The position numbers were made by a program, and so were the translations under genes. A stretch of DNA of 32,000 bases from the NCBI RefSeq assembly GCF_000196555.1, contig NC_015067.1, forward strand, positions 420,001 through 452,000. Reading direction: 5' to 3'. Below, one piece after another: positions 9,937-32,000 of the stretch. Numbering within the stretch: the first letter of the stretch is position 1; each line of letters opens with the position of its first letter. The notes below the pieces were generated by a model that had not been told where the DNA came from, made no database searches, and saw only the letters and a list, made by a program, of their open reading frames with translations. This stretch comes from Bifidobacterium longum subsp. longum JCM 1217. GTDB lineage: Bacteria > Actinomycetota > Actinomycetes > Actinomycetales > Bifidobacteriaceae.

Positions 9937-10653
9937 TTATCGGCAACTCCCCACAAACGCATCAAAAATCGCCTGCGAGCGTGGATCTACCTTGTAGAGA
10001 AACTCGGGATGCCACTGCACGGCCCACAGGAAGTGGCTTGCCGGCCGGTACAGGGCCTCGATCACGCCGTCGGGCGCGACGGCCATGACCTCGAGTCCAG
10101 CAGCAGGCTCACGAACCGCCTGATGGTGATAGCTATTCACCGCAATCTCAGTCTGCCCTGCGAACAATGAAGCCAGGGGAGTGCCGGGCACCAAGGAAAC
10201 GTTATGTCCGAACGCATCGTACGGCGGATTCATATGGTGTTCGATATCGCTCGGATGCTGGCTTGGCAGATCCTGCCACAACGTGCCGCGCAGCGCTGCG
10301 TTGATGAACTGAATGCCACGGCAGATGCCCAGAATCGGCTTGTCCCAAGCCATTACAGCTGGCAGCAGAATCGATTCCATTCGGTCGCGCTCAGGAGAGA
10401 GCACCTCGCTACGGCCGGTGGCGGAGGCCGCTGCACCAACCATCGGTCCCACATCCGGCCCGCCCGTAAACAGAAACGCGTCAAACCGTTCGGCGCATTG
10501 CGCAAGAATGTCGGTGTCATCGGTCAGCGGCAACATGACGGGCGTACCGCCGGCCCGCATTATCGCCTCCATATATCCGGGCAGCATCCACAGACTATCG
10601 CGCCCGTAATCCATCAGCGGAGTCACCGCAATGAGCGGTCGATTCGTAGTCAT
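9937..10653 (-). CDS. class I glutamine amidotransferase / gamma-glutamyl-GABA hydrolase-like protein (peptidase C26)
   Basis: 238 aa. ILGICRGIQFIN (nucleophile Cys elbow), SYHHQAV and WAVQWHPE blocks typical of PuuD/C26 proteins. Confidence 0.85.
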   Translation of the reverse strand: MTTNRPLIAVTPLMDYGRDSLWMLPGYMEAIMRAGGTPVMLPLTDDTDILAQCAERFDAFLFTGGPDVGPMVGAAASATGRSEVLSPERDRMESILLPAVMAWDKPILGICRGIQFINAALRGTLWQDLPSQHPSDIEHHMNPPYDAFGHNVSLVPGTPLASLFAGQTEIAVNSYHHQAVREPAAGLEVMAVAPDGVIEALYRPASHFLWAVQWHPEFLYKVDPRSQAIFDAFVGSCR

Positions 10654-10926
10654 GCCTGCCTCTTTTCGCCCAAGTGTTGTTTTCGTCGTTCTGCCGCAAA
10701 TCGCTTGATTCAGTGGCCAATAATGCCGCCACTGTACCGAACCAATGTAACCGGTCGGCCAACATTATTTCGTCAGCCAGCCGCGACGAGATCGCACAAT
10801 GTGCCAATGATGGGGGCATTCGGTGCGACCTTGTCAATGTTCGGGCCATTGCACTTTCAGCGGGGAAAGCATGCCCCGTCCGCGCATCATGATGAACGAG
10901 TAAGGTTGACGGGGAGGGAGAATCAC

Positions 10927-12501
10927 ATGAACCAGGCATGCGTACGCAACGACACCATCGACGCGGGCAACCATCATGGCCGACCGCAATACCGGTCGTT
11001 CCTGCGATTTCTGACATCGCAGGAACGCAACGTCATTTGGCTGTTGCTGGCCATTGCTTTTCTTCCGGTGGACGGCACCACGCTTGGCCTGTACGCGCCG
11101 TTCTGGTCTCCAATCAGTCCGGCGCTGTTCGCCGTGTACTGCCTATGCAATTGGCGGCAACTGCGCATCGCAGCCAACCGGTACCTGCCAATGTTCCTCC
11201 TACCGGTGGCCTGCATAATCCTGTCCATCCCGGGATGGCTGAAGTTCGGCATCCACCTCAACGCCGCGTTCATGAGCATCACCGGATTGCTGGGCGTGCT
11301 CGCCACTTTGGGTGCGATCGCCCTTGCGTTCGACATCAAACGCATTCCGTGGCGTACGCCATTGCGGATTCTCATCGCATCATACTGGGTTTCCTTCGGA
11401 GTGGGCGTCGTGCAATGGCTGTCCATCCGTCTGCACGCCAAACCGTTGACCGACTATTTCTCGCACCTCATGTACCGGCAATACATCAGCGACAACTCGG
11501 TGTGGGGCGGCGGCCGTCCGCAGTTCCTGTTCGCCGAGCCCAGCTATATCGGCATGCACCTGTTCGGCATACTGCTTCCGCTCATGTGGCTCATGCGCGG
11601 GCGCGACCGCATCTACGCCAAACGGCTGCGTGACCTCATCGTCACGTATGCCGTCGGCGCGGTGCTCATGCAAGCCGGCACCAGAATCGTCATCGATTCC
11701 GTCGTGGCGTTGCTGATCGCCCTTGTGGCGCGCACCGATTGGCATGACGGCGCACGCCGCGTCCGGGGCATGCTGCAGATTCTCGGCGCATGCGCACTGG
11801 GCCTGCTGGGTGTGCTGGCGGATTCCAGACTCTCCGCCATCGCGGAAAACGGGGCCGAGGGAGACGGCTCGTTCTTCGCGCGGATCTACCAAAGCCTCGA
11901 TCCGATATGCGGATTGCTCACCCATCCGTGGACGCTGCTCACCGGTTATGGCGCGGGCAACATCATCAATGCGGTGTGGGCCGGCGCGGCCAAAGCCGGA
12001 CGGCTGCTGGACGGTCTTGGCATGAACGGCGGCGCGGCCACGGGATTCGCGGCCGGCGTGAACGCGGACACGGTGTGGACGATGTGCGCGTATACCAGCG
12101 TCATCGCCGAATACGGGCTGATCGGGCTGGCCATGCTGGTCGGAGCCTCGATGGTCTGCATGACGCGCGGGAGGACGGTATGCCGTGGCGGTGCGGATGG
12201 CGCATCGTCCGACGAGCTGGCGCACGGTGTTTGTGTCGCCGACGTTGCCGACGTTGCTGATGTTGCCGGGGGTAATAGTGGTGGCGGCGTTGCCGGCGCG
12301 GGTTCGGGCGAATCCGGCGTCTGGCACAAGACCGTCATCTGCTGGCTCGTCCTGGTCGCATACCTGTACATCCAATGCGAGAACTATGCGTTCGCCGCTC
12401 TGCCGCTTCTTGTGTTCGCCGCCTCGAAGGTGAGGCGCGAGCCTGATTTCTCGCGGGCCGACGCATCGACGCGGCCCGAGATGGACCAAAATCCAGAATA
12501 A
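10927..12501 (+). CDS. polytopic membrane protein, O-antigen ligase / Wzy-like (functional assignment tentative)
   Basis: Start set at ATG 10927 (GGGGAGGGAG ~7 nt upstream). The upstream part of track ORF 10204.. is antisense to the amidotransferase gene. About 10-12 hydrophobic segments with a large loop (WGGGRPQFLFAEPSYIGMHLFG) resembling Wzy_C-type proteins. Carries a low-complexity insert with VADVADVADVAGG. Confidence 0.6.
   Translation: MNQACVRNDTIDAGNHHGRPQYRSFLRFLTSQERNVIWLLLAIAFLPVDGTTLGLYAPFWSPISPALFAVYCLCNWRQLRIAANRYLPMFLLPVACIILSIPGWLKFGIHLNAAFMSITGLLGVLATLGAIALAFDIKRIPWRTPLRILIASYWVSFGVGVVQWLSIRLHAKPLTDYFSHLMYRQYISDNSVWGGGRPQFLFAEPSYIGMHLFGILLPLMWLMRGRDRIYAKRLRDLIVTYAVGAVLMQAGTRIVIDSVVALLIALVARTDWHDGARRVRGMLQILGACALGLLGVLADSRLSAIAENGAEGDGSFFARIYQSLDPICGLLTHPWTLLTGYGAGNIINAVWAGAAKAGRLLDGLGMNGGAATGFAAGVNADTVWTMCAYTSVIAEYGLIGLAMLVGASMVCMTRGRTVCRGGADGASSDELAHGVCVADVADVADVAGGNSGGGVAGAGSGESGVWHKTVICWLVLVAYLYIQCENYAFAALPLLVFAASKVRREPDFSRADASTRPEMDQNPE
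12238..12267 (+). repeat. in-frame 9-bp tandem repeat (GCCGACGTT x3.3) encoding (ADV)n
   Basis: GCCGACGTT GCCGACGTT GCTGATGTT GCC, read directly. Confidence 0.85.
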
Positions 12502-28249: not shown

Positions 28250-28258
28250 CGCTAATCT

Positions 28259-28307
28259 GGCTCCCCTCCCTGGGGGGAGCTGTCACCGAAGGTGACTGAG
28301 GGGAGCC
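28259..28307 (+). repeat. REP-like multi-hairpin element, family 1, copy C
   Basis: GGCTCCCCTCC-c-TGGGGGGAGCT GTCACC-gaa-GGTGAC TGAGGGGAGCC. The central stem carries a compensatory G>C / C>G pair relative to copies A and B. Confidence 0.9.
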
Positions 28308-28448
28308 TTGCGGAACATTGTCATCTCCCGTCGTAACTCGTAATTGTCACTCGTTTGAGTGGCCCCATGTGTCATCGGAGGTAGCCGTTCACTCCGCTCC
28401 GAGTTCGTGCATCTCTCTCCCCCCCCACGATAAGAGACGCCGTTGGCG

Positions 28449-29839
28449 GGTTCTAGTGATCGTTGCAACACCTGACCTACCGCAAGGAGGGTCAGGTGAC
28501 CAGAAGCCACCGAAACGAAGACCGTGGCGGGGAACACCGTTGGACGTTCAACGGCGTCGAATATCCGACGAGGAAGCTGATGTGCGAGGCGAGACGCGCC
28601 GAGTACGTGCGCCTGCTGGACGAGGAAGGCATGAACTTCACCCAGGCCGCGCACGCGGTCGGCGTCTCGAAACGCACCGGCAAGGCGTGGCGCAACGGCA
28701 GGACGCGCGCCACGGGAAGGAACGAGAAACCCCTGGTGGACTGGTATCGTTCCACCATGGACAAACCCAAGACCCTCCATCCGCGCTACCTGAGCCAGGA
28801 GGAGCGCATCCAGATCGCGGACCGTCTGCGTCTGGGCGATTCGATCCGCGCCATCGCCCGCCTGCTGGGCCGCGACCCCGGCACGGTCAGCCGCGAGGTC
28901 GAGCGCAACAGGAATCCCGAGTCCGGCGGTTACGAGCCTTACCGCGCCCAGCAGAAGGCCGCGGACCGGCTCAAACGCCCCAAACCGCGCAAGGCGGCCG
29001 AGGGCACGCGACTGTGGGACGAGATCGCCGCCGGGTTGCGCAGGCATTGGAGCCCGGAGCAGATAGCCAACCGGCTGAGGCTGGACTTCCCGGATAATGG
29101 GGATATGCACGCGAGCGTCGAGACGATCTACCAGGCCATCTACCTGCAGGCCAGGGGCGAACTCAAGCAGGAGCTGAAACGCGCCATGAGGCAGGGGCGA
29201 ACCGCCCGCAGACCCCAAGGCGGCCAAGGCCGCAAACCCCGTTTCCGCGAACCCATGGCCATGATCTCGGAGCGACCCCCGGAGATCGAGGACCGGGCGG
29301 TCCCGGGCCACTGGGAGGGCGATCTCATCACCGGCAGCCGCAACAAAAGCGCCATCGGCACGCTCGTCGAGCGCACCACCAGGTTCACGATCCTGCTGCA
29401 CCTGCCCGACGGGCACGACGCCGAACACGTCCAGCAGGCCATCATCGACAAGATGCAGCACCTGCCCAAACTCCTGCGCAACAGCCTGACCTGGGACCAG
29501 GGAGCGGAACTCGCCCTGCACAAACGGATCGGCGCCTCGCTGGACATGGCCGTCTACTTCTGCGACCCGCACTCCCCGTGGCAGCGCGGCACCAACGAGA
29601 ACACCAACGGGCTCCTGCGCCAGTACTTCCCCAAAGGCACCGACCTATCCGTCTACCCGGAGGACTACCTCGACGCGGTCGCCGAGGAACTCAACGACCG
29701 GCCACGCAAAACCCTCGGGTTCATGAAACCAAGCGAGAAGATCATCGAACTGCTCGACGCCGCGTGATAACCTCAACAACCGACAACGTGACCATGGAAG
29801 GCCGCTCAAACCTCAGGTGTTGCAACCACCACTAGAATC
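28449..29839 (+). mobile_element. IS30-family insertion sequence (~1.39 kb)
   Basis: Terminal inverted repeats TTCTAGTGATCGTTGCAACACCTGA (28451-28475) and TCAGGTGTTGCAACCACCACTAGAA (29813-29837), 23/25 complementary, enclosing a single IS30-type transposase ORF. Confidence 0.85.
28496..29767 (+). CDS. IS30-family DDE transposase
   Basis: Start at GTG 28496 (AAGGAGG 6 nt upstream). N-terminal HTH; catalytic region PGHWEGDLI ... LTWDQGAE ... PWQRGTNENTNGLLRQYFPKGTDLS and RPRKTLGF, characteristic of IS30 transposases. Confidence 0.9.
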   Translation: MTRSHRNEDRGGEHRWTFNGVEYPTRKLMCEARRAEYVRLLDEEGMNFTQAAHAVGVSKRTGKAWRNGRTRATGRNEKPLVDWYRSTMDKPKTLHPRYLSQEERIQIADRLRLGDSIRAIARLLGRDPGTVSREVERNRNPESGGYEPYRAQQKAADRLKRPKPRKAAEGTRLWDEIAAGLRRHWSPEQIANRLRLDFPDNGDMHASVETIYQAIYLQARGELKQELKRAMRQGRTARRPQGGQGRKPRFREPMAMISERPPEIEDRAVPGHWEGDLITGSRNKSAIGTLVERTTRFTILLHLPDGHDAEHVQQAIIDKMQHLPKLLRNSLTWDQGAELALHKRIGASLDMAVYFCDPHSPWQRGTNENTNGLLRQYFPKGTDLSVYPEDYLDAVAEELNDRPRKTLGFMKPSEKIIELLDAA

Positions 29840-29932
29840 TGCCGTTCAATCGTTTAGTGACTTTTTGTTAATTTCTGTGCTTAAGTAGCAACTTTATGTG
29901 TGTTTTCTCTACGATCTGGTGTATATTATTTT

Positions 29933-29950: not shown

Positions 29951-30019
29951 GCACGCGCGATGTGTGAATTGCCGCAACATCGCTGATATGCGTACATGGA
30001 ATCTGGAGGAATGTATCTG

Positions 30020-31618
30020 ATGACGGCATCAACTGAATCGTCTACGCAATCCCATCATGATGAGAAAGAGGCCATTGCTCCCGCGCGACTTGTGGCCTAC
30101 GCGCTCGGCAACTTCGGCCAGTCGGCGTTCTACAACGCGCTAAGCACCTACTTCGTGGTCTATGTGACCAACTCGCTGTTCTCCGGAGTGGACAAGGCCG
30201 TGGCGGGCAAGCTCATCGGCATCATCACCTCGCTGATCGTGATCATTCGTATCGCGGAAATCTTCGTGGACCCGCTGCTGGGCAACCTGGTGGATAACAC
30301 CACCACCAAACTCGGGCGATTCCGCCCTTGGCAGCTCATCGGCGGTCTGGTGTCCGCCGTGCTGATCGTCATGGTCTACACTGGCCTGTTCGGCTTGGTC
30401 AACGTCAACACCACGCTGTTCATCGTCCTGTTCGTGGTGGTGTTCGTGGTGCTCGATGTGTTCTACTCCCTGCGCGATATCTCCTACTGGGGAATGATCC
30501 CCTCCATCTCTTCCGACTCCCATCAGCGCGGCATCTACACCGCAGCCGGCACCTTCACCGGATCGCTCGGGTACAACGGTCTGACTATCGCCGTGATGCC
30601 CATCGTCACCTTCTTCAGCTTCGATGCCGGCCAGCAGAACCAGAATGGTTGGACCGCGTTCATCATCATCGTGGCCCTGCTCGGCGCTCTCACGGCTCTG
30701 AGTGTAGTGTTCGGTGTCAAGGAAAAACAGAGCACGCTGCGCACCAAGGCCCAGGAGAACGGTAACCCGATTGAAGCGTTCCGCGCCCTGATTCACAACG
30801 ACCAGCTCATGTGGACCGCTTTGTCTTATGTGTTCTACGCCGTCGCCAACGTGGCCACCGGTGGCGTGATGGTCTACCTGTTCAAATACGTGATTGGTCG
30901 CATGGACCTTTTCCCGGTCACCGGCGTCATCCCTATTGCGTGCGGTCTGATTATGTCGGTACTGTTCCCGGTCATCACTAGGTGGGTGCCCCGCCGTTAT
31001 CTGTTCCTCATCGGCATGTCCGTGATGGTCGTGGCCTACCTGCTGCTGATTGTCGCCTCCACGAATATACCGCTGCTGCTGGTGGCACTAGTGCTGTTCT
31101 ACCTGCCGCAGACCCAGATTCAGATGACCGTGATCGTGTGCCTTGAGGACTCCATTGAATACGGCCAGCTGAAAACAGGCAAACGCAACGAAGCCGTGAC
31201 GCTGTCCGTGCGTCCGATGCTCGACAAGATCGCCGGCGCATTCTCCAACGGCTTCGTCGGCTTCGTGGCCGTGGCCGCCGGCATGATCGGTTCCGCCACC
31301 GCCGCCGACATGACGGCCAAGGACATCACCATCTTCAAGACCTTCGCCTTCATGATTCCGCTGGTGTGCATTGTGCTTGGCCTGATTGTGTTCGCGATTT
31401 TCGTGAAGATCGACGAAAAGGCCCATGCGCGTCTGGTCGCCAAGCTCACTGAGAATCTTGCGACGGCTGGCGATGGTGGTGGTAACGACGATGGTGTTGG
31501 TGTTGGTGTTGGTGACAATGGTGAGCATAATGGTGGCCACGCCAGCATCGCGTCGGAAGATTCCGCATTGGCGGAATACGGTCCCGAACTCGCCAAGCGG
31601 GTGTTGCTCGGCAAATAG
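30020..31618 (+). CDS. glycoside-pentoside-hexuronide (GPH):cation symporter family transporter
   Basis: Start preferred at ATG 30020 (GGAGGA 9 nt upstream); the track ORF starts at 29996. GPH signature LGNLVDNTTTKLGRFRPW and 12 hydrophobic segments. Gly/Asp/Val-rich C-terminal tail. Confidence 0.88.
   Translation: MTASTESSTQSHHDEKEAIAPARLVAYALGNFGQSAFYNALSTYFVVYVTNSLFSGVDKAVAGKLIGIITSLIVIIRIAEIFVDPLLGNLVDNTTTKLGRFRPWQLIGGLVSAVLIVMVYTGLFGLVNVNTTLFIVLFVVVFVVLDVFYSLRDISYWGMIPSISSDSHQRGIYTAAGTFTGSLGYNGLTIAVMPIVTFFSFDAGQQNQNGWTAFIIIVALLGALTALSVVFGVKEKQSTLRTKAQENGNPIEAFRALIHNDQLMWTALSYVFYAVANVATGGVMVYLFKYVIGRMDLFPVTGVIPIACGLIMSVLFPVITRWVPRRYLFLIGMSVMVVAYLLLIVASTNIPLLLVALVLFYLPQTQIQMTVIVCLEDSIEYGQLKTGKRNEAVTLSVRPMLDKIAGAFSNGFVGFVAVAAGMIGSATAADMTAKDITIFKTFAFMIPLVCIVLGLIVFAIFVKIDEKAHARLVAKLTENLATAGDGGGNDDGVGVGVGDNGEHNGGHASIASEDSALAEYGPELAKRVLLGK
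31493..31514 (+). repeat. in-frame hexanucleotide repeat (GGTGTT)x3+ encoding GVGVGVG in the transporter tail
   Basis: GGTGTTGGTGTTGGTGTTGGTG, read directly. Confidence 0.85.
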
Positions 31619-31641
31619 TGTTGCTGTGCGAATGAGCTGTT

Positions 31642-31785
31642 TCATGGGGTGGTGATTGGCCCATGGGGCGGTGAATTCCTCATGGGGCGGTGGCTGAAAA
31701 TGGCTTTATTCTGCGGAAGGTAAAATTTTACCGACCGCCCCATGGGCAAGTTACCGCCCCATGGGATTTTCGCCGCCCCATGGAT
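31642..31785. repeat. phased motif array: 3 forward CATGGGG(C/T)GGTG and 3 reverse (A/G)CCGCCCCATGG copies
   Basis: CATGGGG starts at 31643, 31662 and 31681. CCCCATG ends at 31744, 31763 and 31782, so spacing is exactly 19 bp in both sets. The sets are separated by a ~40-nt AT-rich spacer. Degenerate relatives occur at ~31814-31829, 31899-31912 and 31970-31983. Confidence 0.85.
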
Positions 31786-32000
31786 GTACGGGTAAAGGCG
31801 GCCGAATTGCCTCGTGCCGCCCCCGTGGATATGCAAGTTAAAGAGCATCGGCAGCATGACTGAATGCACATAGAGCGTCCCCCGCATGGTTGTGCCACGT
31901 TCCATGGCGGGGTCGCCGTGGTGACTGTCGCCAGTACACGCCATGCCACGCGAGCACGTTGTTGCCGGTGTTCCATGGCGGAAACGTCGTGGGCATACAC

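Follow-up and report, generated by a model that had tools for sequence, protein, structure and literature searches.

Near the end of a 32,000-nucleotide (nt) stretch of Bifidobacterium longum subsp. longum JCM 1217 DNA (contig NC_015067.1, positions 420,001 to 452,000; the whole stretch is hereafter called the window) lies a 140-bp block of short inverted modules, which is a copy of a dispersed family found at no fewer than 13 unrelated intergenic loci in B. longum-type genomes. We judge it probable, at roughly 60%, that the block is one copy of a new, lineage-restricted family of composite, foldback-type small interspersed repeats carried by B. longum and its closest relatives. The best reading is that this family is the B. 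longum form of a well-known kind of bacterial element, resembling BOX, the bacterial interspersed mosaic elements (BIMEs) or foldback MITEs (miniature inverted-repeat transposable elements). As in small composite interspersed repeats, separated copies of similar sequence share a regular pattern of sub-sequences and lie outside coding sequence. No published description of the family was found in the literature searched; keyword searches gave no bifidobacterial repeat family and searching for the motif as a text string brought up nothing but unrelated primers and aptamers, while a description may exist in journals beyond those searched.

The initial annotation of the block had described six motifs, three forward and three reverse, phased at 19 bp around an AT-rich centre, and its coordinates and phasing are as claimed. 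CATGGGG(T/C)GGTG starts at 31643, 31662 and 31681 on the plus strand, its reverse complement lies at 31733-31744, 31752-31763 and 31771-31782, and the phasing is exactly 19 bp in each arm (repeat listing; Tandem Repeats Finder period 19), with 40 nt of 37.5% G+C separating the arms. With at most one mismatch, the 12-mer has seven matches in the 32-kb window versus 0.67 expected, a number reached by none of 100 shuffles, and six of the seven fall within the 140-bp element. A search with nhmmer and the family profile finds one copy in the window (E=1.4e-29), composed of the following parts.

31643..31782, plus strand (as set by the asymmetric core box): entire composite element of 140 bp, with three forward modules, a 42-nt core and three inverted modules
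31643..31661, plus strand: left module L1, CATGGGGTGGT GA TTGG CC, assigned by the module consensus
31662..31680, plus strand: left module L2, CATGGGGCGGT GA ATTC CT, assigned by the module consensus
31681..31691, plus strand: inner left motif L3, CATGGGGCGGT, adjoining the core, its start 53 nt ahead of that of the inner right motif
31692..31696, plus strand: 5-nt core segment GGCTG, locus-specific and different among loci in the alignment
31697..31716, plus strand: asymmetric core box AAAATGGCTTTATTCTGCGG, conserved in every Bifidobacterium copy and setting the orientation of the element
31717..31733, plus strand: 17-nt core segment AAGGTAAAATTTTACCG, subfamily-specific, one of three sequence classes among loci
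31719-31732: 14-bp palindrome GGTAAAATTTTACC inside the 17-nt core segment
31734..31744, minus strand: inner right motif R1, ACCGCCCCATG, an inverted module
31745..31763, minus strand: right module R2, GGCAAGTT ACCGCCCCATG
31764..31782, minus strand: right module R3, GGATTTTC GCCGCCCCATG
31816..31828, minus strand: possible degenerate, out-of-phase inverted module GCCGCCCCCGTGG, of uncertain membership

Looser copies of the motif had been reported to continue up to the window edge. Only the one at 31816-31828 resembles a family module; it aligns with the degenerate third right module of the orthologous copy in the metagenome-assembled genome (MAG) Bifidobacterium sp. Map_4_007 (L010), and it falls inside a segment of about 45 bp that is missing from this MAG, in which R3 and the next ~30 bp are missing or degenerate. 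The stretches at 31899-31921 and 31970-31992 are not members. They form a two-copy direct repeat (GTTCCATGGCGG...), 83% identical and 71 bp apart, each copy of which contains the short inverted repeat CCATGGCG/CGCCGTGG, and they are unique sequence specific to this locus, outside the dispersed family.

That the architecture recurs elsewhere emerged from a scan of one genome per species for two phased motifs (CATGGGGYGG-N9-CATGGGGYGG), which returned 47 stretches. They included eight different contigs of Map_4_007, one other Bifidobacterium MAG, a contig from a MAG labelled Collinsella and a 511-bp contig labelled Sphingomonas; all of these Bifidobacterium-type matches have arms facing each other and the box AAAATGGCTTTATTCTGCGG with no more than four mismatches, and the box is in none of the approximately 35 first-scan matches from other phyla (Streptomyces, Planctomycetes and others). 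The two contigs with foreign labels are probably misattributed: the 511-bp contig of the Sphingomonas glacialis assembly (L015, NZ_BNAQ01000051.1) matches the window exactly over the compared stretches, including 31790-31980, which suggests contamination, and the one binned as Collinsella (L009, CAADTZ010000079.1) has its orthologue in a Bifidobacterium locus (L038), pointing to mis-binning.

A second scan, anchored on the inner motif plus box, yielded at least 104 human-gut metagenome contigs. The 115 instances among the matches listed, on which all counts of loci, configurations, modules and orientations below rest, cluster by flanking sequence into about 13 distinct loci, a lower bound. Both the window transporter and aspS, which adjoins another copy, belong to 90% protein clusters with members named Bifidobacterium longum (a B. 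longum GPH:cation symporter in the case of the transporter), and the nearest other named species is only 60-70% identical for the transporter; the host of the element is therefore B. longum or a very close relative.

All copies follow one plan, with one to seven forward modules, five variable nucleotides, the box, 17 nt and one to three inverted modules, at total lengths of 100-235 bp. The core is fixed at 42 nt, such that the inner forward motif and the inner inverted motif start 53 nt apart in every copy, and the 20-nt box, AAAA(T/C)GGC-nnn-ATTC(C/T)GCG(G/A), holds an invariant position within it. The 17-nt segment that follows falls into three sequence classes among loci, and the class of the window copy is common to the copy at the adhE locus (L035). 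Across 50 modules from 13 loci the consensus is CATGGGGCGGT-(A/g)-A-NNNN-C-(C/t), in summary form CATGGGGCGGTRA-NNNN-CY, and its sole palindrome is a short YCATGR centre. The initial annotation took a 12-13-bp motif as the conserved unit; the motif is indeed conserved, but the unit is larger, because 15 of the 19 module positions are conserved and four are free. Its further point that motif and phasing, rather than a long perfect hairpin, are what is conserved is borne out by the near-invariant motif and box and by four variable positions per module that change without compensatory pairing. Motif and box also go together: 1.02 Mb of Bifidobacterium contigs contain no exact motif outside box-bearing elements and 14 one-mismatch singletons, about the number expected by chance, and ~1 Mb contains no credible box without an adjacent motif, the sole orphan match having four mismatches. 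The profile search never finds two copies in one contig, and contigs from more distant bifidobacteria yield none.

All 13 loci are intergenic, between open reading frames (ORFs) that are supported by Pfam or by coding signatures. The genes beside the copies, mostly housekeeping and without a common functional theme, include the following.

Xanthine permease and DEAD-box helicase
P-type ATPase
rlmH and glycerophosphodiesterase
EamA transporter
Thiamine-binding protein and MFS transporter
aspS and DUF559 protein
OYE-type oxidoreductase and pyrD
adhE, yhgE, phoU and an aminotransferase (listed together)
ilvC and alpha-glucosidase

Gene contexts are convergent for five to six copies, tandem for four to five and divergent for one to two, and a stop codon is no more than about 50 nt away from most copies. 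The initial annotation had named two outcomes that would contradict it, a conserved coding region and a motif at background frequency without phasing elsewhere; we find that the element is non-coding and that phased copies recur at other loci.

This dispersal decides most of the candidates that had been listed for the block. A foldback MITE, or abutted multi-site ends, comes nearest, given that the element is a dispersed non-coding repeat, whereas iterons, a centromere-like site and a multi-operator region are unsupported. The setting of the window copy does invite a local interpretation, as a multi-operator for a LacI-type regulator or galA, as replicon iterons or as a centromere-like parS array: it has the look of clustered binding sites and stands in a sugar-utilisation cluster with a GH42 beta-galactosidase gene, a LacI regulator gene and the transporter gene given below, with galA downstream in Map_4_007. 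We nevertheless regard any such locus-specific site as extremely improbable. The identical architecture stands beside aspS, pyrD, adhE, ilvC, rlmH, a P-type ATPase gene and others at the 13 or more unrelated chromosomal loci, genes for replication or partition are missing from the vicinity of the window element, no plasmid matches it, and the motif is not a LacI-type palindrome. An origin in phage or plasmid was likewise rejected, with no BLAST match, and three viral-contig matches to the pattern were unrelated simple repeats.

The gene immediately upstream of the window copy is this:

29996..31618, plus strand: GPH/MFS_2 galactoside-type (lacS-like) transporter (PF13347, 1.8e-70)

The element starts 24 nt past its stop codon. 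Contigs extending past 32000, as the initial annotation had proposed to inspect, were obtained by exact-protein look-up of the transporter (L001, in which coordinates equal window coordinates minus 29994), and show a 107-aa C-terminal remnant of the GH53 endogalactanase galA, followed by an unrelated repeat family and an aldo-keto reductase gene. In Map_4_007, ~96% identical, the same element lies between the transporter gene and an intact 950-aa galA (L010 2445-5297). From these downstream regions we conclude that the window element is not an operator array made by, or dependent on, a gene past the window edge.

Three loci, the window, aspS and oxidoreductase/pyrD loci, were sampled without selecting for the element. 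It is present at the window locus in six of six contigs, including two with a divergent (74-76% identical) transporter allele, and at the aspS locus in both close contigs (at least 97% protein identity); at amino-acid identities of 96% or below it is absent from the aspS locus, where the downstream region is rearranged too. At the pyrD locus the element fills the whole convergent spacer in B. longum-type contigs, the 94%-identity lineage (L165) has a different set of GC-rich hairpins at the site, and the 87%-identity lineage (L166, L167) has an empty 10-nt spacer. Presence in close relatives and absence beyond them make the family a derived feature of the B. longum lineage, fixed at these sites, and neither ongoing insertion nor recent insertion polymorphism was seen at the loci sampled.

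What does vary is the number of modules. The commonest configurations of left and right modules are 3/3 (46 instances), 4/3 (23), 3/2 (16) and 4/2 (8); the P-type ATPase locus has one, two, three or seven left modules in different samples, among them six identical tandem modules in L071, and some samples have, while others lack, the third right module at the xanthine-permease locus. Such change at one locus is minisatellite-like and is consistent with replication slippage or unequal exchange within the arrays. An invertible DNA switch was considered and rejected, as no core inverted relative to its flanks occurs at any locus among the 115 instances.

Taken as an interspersed repeat, the family would have been mobile in the past, having spread once, in the ancestor of the lineage, by a transposition-like or recombination-like process, and its copies would have been inherited vertically since. 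The modules and box may be sites recognised by whichever protein mobilised the element, or by a DNA-binding protein of the host; that they are protein-recognition sites is suggested by the conservation of motif, phase, core length and box while other positions are free. When transcribed as the tail of an upstream gene, in the window that of the lacS-like transporter, a copy is predicted to fold into a rod-like hairpin of ~15-bp helices with 4x4 internal loops, which could act at the upstream transcript's 3' end, whether as terminator, as insulator or by blocking 3' exonucleases.

Comparison with known families places the element near, and apart from, several of them. The nearest analogues are composite interspersed repeats, namely BOX, which occurs in well over 100 copies per genome against ~13 loci among the matches listed here, and the BIMEs of enterobacteria. 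In Streptococcus pneumoniae, BOX (boxA-boxB(n)-boxC) is composite, has strain-variable tandem modules, and appears to have spread in the past with few new insertions since (PMC3049150). Both are modular interspersed repeats below 200-300 bp, intergenic, with extensive predicted secondary structure and restricted to one species group. They have no sequence similarity, and BOX places unique end modules (A and C) around direct 45-nt boxB repeats, whereas the B. longum element places repeated inverted arms around a unique core; the terminal inverted repeats (TIRs) of BOX resemble ISSpn2, and no counterpart among insertion sequences (ISs) was found for the B. longum element.

Repetitive extragenic palindromes (REP) and the BIMEs built from them lie at gene 3' ends and between convergent genes, and are bound by the host proteins IHF, gyrase and Pol I. 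The REP unit is an imperfect palindrome of ~35 bp, present in hundreds of copies and linked to a RAYT (TnpA_REP) transposase. Like the B. longum element, BIMEs are mosaics of a short GC-rich unit, alternating or inverted, with other conserved motifs and a variable unit number; unlike the REP unit, the B. longum module is 19 bp, is not a hairpin of its own (pairing needs the opposite arm) and has a low copy number. No RAYT (TnpA_REP) Pfam match was found among the ORFs of the window or the examined flanks, although no search aimed at RAYT was made. BIMEs inserted in operons can be transcriptional attenuators (PMC3049150).

Several results weigh against our reading, and they concern how the family could have moved, how it varies and how it folds. 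As to movement, no target-site duplication (TSD) was found at a consistent offset in the 13 loci (a very short one is still possible, because degenerate outer modules blur the element boundaries), neither the MAG nor ~1 Mb of contigs revealed an autonomous parent with these modules, the copy number (at least 13 loci) is low compared with the classical REP, BOX and Correia families, and the arms are GC-rich, unlike typical MITEs. In the strain comparison that the initial annotation had called for, the block is present in all close relatives sampled and absent in more distant lineages, but no clean pair of filled and empty sites within one lineage was found at the aspS and pyrD loci, where it was sought, and absences come only with rearranged or diverged flanks. 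As to variation, some low module counts are indels in low-coverage contigs, and part of the variation may be an artefact of short-read assembly. Within loci, the diversity of motif (pi 0.016) and box (0.008) is as low as that of mostly coding flanks (0.008-0.028), with spacers reaching 0.037, which could mean host-level constraint rather than selfish DNA, although the comparison is biased and only a hint, because the copies were retrieved by an exact motif-plus-box pattern.

The observations on movement also bear on a narrower alternative, in which the element is a true MITE derived from a transposon of the Tn7, Tn402, Tn552, Mu or IS21 type, consisting of its two multi-site ends with a 42-bp remnant between them, and mobilised in trans by a transposase that is encoded elsewhere or has been lost. 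Arrays of ~20-bp sites, direct within an end, inverted between ends and often unequal (three versus four), are a hallmark of Tn7, Tn402 (Tn5090), Tn5053 and Tn552 (PMC8649781). The arms of the present element are often unequal too (4/3, 3/2 and 4/2), are inverted arrays of one module in the manner of TIRs, and enclose a core segment that sets subfamilies, as in MITE families. IS21-type elements likewise have multiple terminal repeats, and Tn7 generates a 5-bp TSD. B. longum itself carries 7-10 IS21-family copies (PMC2430713). The Correia elements and other foldback MITEs offer a second parallel, being small, non-coding, hairpin-capable and dispersed between genes, with inverted ends around a short core and with subfamilies (PMC3049150).

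We still find this derivation quite unlikely. In the transposons the arrays flank kilobases that include the transposase, whereas in the present element only 42 bp separate the arms and the number of modules changes in place; no DDE transposase with an AAA+ partner adjoins any copy among the neighbours of the loci examined. Neither a 5-bp nor any other TSD occurs at a consistent offset. As TIRs the arms match neither the IS30-family element of the window nor the integrase cassettes of B. longum, and the motif flanks nothing larger in the MAG or ~1 Mb of contigs. MITEs are characterised as AT-rich and TSD-generating (PMC3049150), and Correia elements of Neisseria have single 26-bp TIRs, in contrast to the GC-rich tandem arrays, with no TSD found and no known parent IS, seen in B. 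longum. The change of module number at a fixed locus resembles slippage, not transposition, and recent insertion polymorphism was not seen.

Three specific relationships were tried and rejected. A MITE of the neighbouring IS30-family element, the sole IS in the window, is contradicted by its unrelated 31-bp terminal inverted repeats (IRs). A miniature of the mobile integrase (three-integrase) cassettes of B. longum would share the host species, and the 96-bp IRs of these cassettes also hold sub-repeats and a palindrome, but the sub-repeat TTAAGCCGGG and the palindrome TTAAACCGACATCGGTTTAA resemble neither CATGGGGCGGT nor the core box (PMC2430713). The TIGR arrays of the B. longum TasA system are likewise short, poorly conserved repeat arrays with stems, but are direct tandem arrays beside or inside a tas gene, whereas the present element is dispersed, has inverted arms and lacks box C/D and a tas neighbour (bioRxiv 10.64898/2026.09.09.750476), so that neither architecture nor gene neighbourhood fits.

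The conservation of motif and box would also suit a host-functional array, in which the 19-bp modules and box bind a chromosomal protein (a nucleoid-associated protein, a factor for roadblock or termination, or, as at BIMEs, a topoisomerase) and are kept by host selection rather than as selfish DNA. Several features speak for such an array: 11 motif positions are near-invariant and the box is conserved, with the positions in between free to vary, the core length is fixed, motif and box strictly co-occur, the diversity of both lies at or below that of the mostly coding flanks, neither TSD nor parent element was found, and the element occurs in every close strain from the unbiased sampling and is common to a lineage of ~96% nucleotide identity. 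Others speak against it, including the lack of a common theme among neighbouring genes, module numbers that are unstable between strains, a 19-bp spacing that sets successive sites on different faces of the helix, and the retrieval bias in the diversity comparison; moreover, the element is missing at orthologous sites of the next-closest lineages, in one case just a 10-nt gap, and hence is dispensable there. On balance we consider host selection a possible but unlikely explanation.

We attach a similarly low weight to a bolder proposal, that the modules and box form a dedicated platform for a new B. longum protein, either a recombinase or transposase (domesticated or active) of a kind so far without any connection to phased 19-bp sites, or a host factor acting on the arrays. 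If so, the family would be a functional system rather than decaying selfish DNA; a host factor on the arrays would block transcription or organise the chromosome at gene 3' ends, and the strain-variable number of modules would tune the strength of its effect.

With regard to folding, the window copy forms a single interrupted hairpin as RNA (–101.7 kcal/mol, z=–8.9; –49.4 kcal/mol as DNA), and all loci fold at –64 to –105 kcal/mol. The consensus fold has three ~15-bp helices with 4x4 internal loops between them and a 42-nt apical region on top. Compensatory covariation is absent (RNAalifold term +0.22), with any double change in only three of 45 pairs, and in no register does complementarity of the free positions within a locus exceed that between loci, in agreement with the earlier statement that the spacers between motifs are not complementary between the arms. 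The box strand gives the better fold at six loci and the opposite strand at five; with no consistent advantage for either, nothing shows selection for RNA structure. No T-tract follows the hairpin: a scan of 31300-32000 with the terminator consensus finds none, and no T-run lies past the right arm. Terminator function is compatible with a missing T-tract, because the other B. longum 3' hairpins examined also lack one. At the aspS locus a canonical T-tract terminator precedes the element, which is thus not needed to end aspS transcription there, and the element abuts the convergent gene in antisense orientation.

These results also count against a structured RNA, that is, a 3'-untranslated-region (3'-UTR) stabiliser or terminator, or a small RNA, that depends on the rod-like hairpin and on the box in its apical loop. 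The extremely stable fold on either strand, the predicted apical position of the box and the location just past stop codons would suit such an RNA, as would the core box pointing with transcription in all four tandem contexts with both neighbours identified, an agreement that is not significant (p=0.125). Given the lack of covariation, of any same-locus excess of complementarity, of a preferred strand and of a U-tract, together with the arrangement at aspS, we consider this explanation very unlikely, and a selected RNA hairpin was rejected on the same three grounds of covariation, complementarity and strand bias in folding energy. Membership in a known RNA family was rejected as well, Rfam having nothing at the gathering threshold and, when matches with E up to 10 were admitted, only noise below it. 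A rule of orientation relative to the upstream gene was also discarded, the four-of-four agreement not being significant and the aspS locus contradicting a simple 3'-UTR model.

B. longum is a much-studied gut commensal and probiotic, yet this repeat family appears to be undescribed in Rfam and the literature searched. If confirmed, the family would provide an annotation for puzzling intergenic blocks and caution against interpreting such blocks as operators. It would further supply about a dozen loci with hypervariable module number by which strains could be followed in metagenomes, modules that are candidates for strong terminators or insulators in bifidobacterial genetic tools, and a tractable case for a protein recognising a 15-of-19-bp phased motif plus a fixed core. 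The element also marks a lineage boundary, because close relatives lack it at the same sites.

The surroundings of the window copy provided further observations. Just downstream, galA is in fragments (window 31800-32000; L001 1786-2304), the remnant retains a sortase-type sorting tail, and the rearrangement starts within a few tens of base pairs of the right arm. The unrelated repeat family that follows (L001 2380-2720, ~0.4-0.7 kb past the window end) comprises several GTCCCGGT / ACCGGGACA copies, which form palindromes around AT-rich spacers upstream of the aldo-keto reductase gene. The IS30-family IS lies at window 28445-29843, between the LacI and transporter genes and 1.8 kb upstream of the element; its terminal inverted repeats are imperfect, its transposase ORF (28463-29767) has HTH_38 and rve domains, and it is missing from the orthologous region of Map_4_007.

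The 3' end of the transporter gene holds a perfect (TGGTGT)x3.8 repeat (window 31492-31514) that encodes GVGVGV, and lengths of 530 to 540 aa among members of the transporter's 90% cluster suggest that the coding sequence is polymorphic in length. A transporter allele at L051 10001-11650 is ~78% identical in its alignable 5' part (window 30095-30626), is 96-98% identical from 31094 onward and adjoins a GH2 lacZ rather than the GH42 gene, which indicates a recombination breakpoint inside the transporter gene, upstream of the element.

Elsewhere in the window, two FtsX-type permease genes and a gene for an ABC ATPase are preceded by a 765-aa ORF (10204-12501) that has no Pfam match. The LacI gene is followed by a GC-rich hairpin without a T-tract (window 28255-28305, GGCTCCCC..GGGGGAGC), and the pyrD spacer of the 94%-identity lineage (L165 2073-2216) contains two GGCTCCCGCcagCGGGAGCC copies plus CTGAGGGTGGT..ACCACCCTCAG, also GC-rich hairpins without T-tracts; the hairpins at both sites may represent further repeat families or the usual terminator type of the genus.

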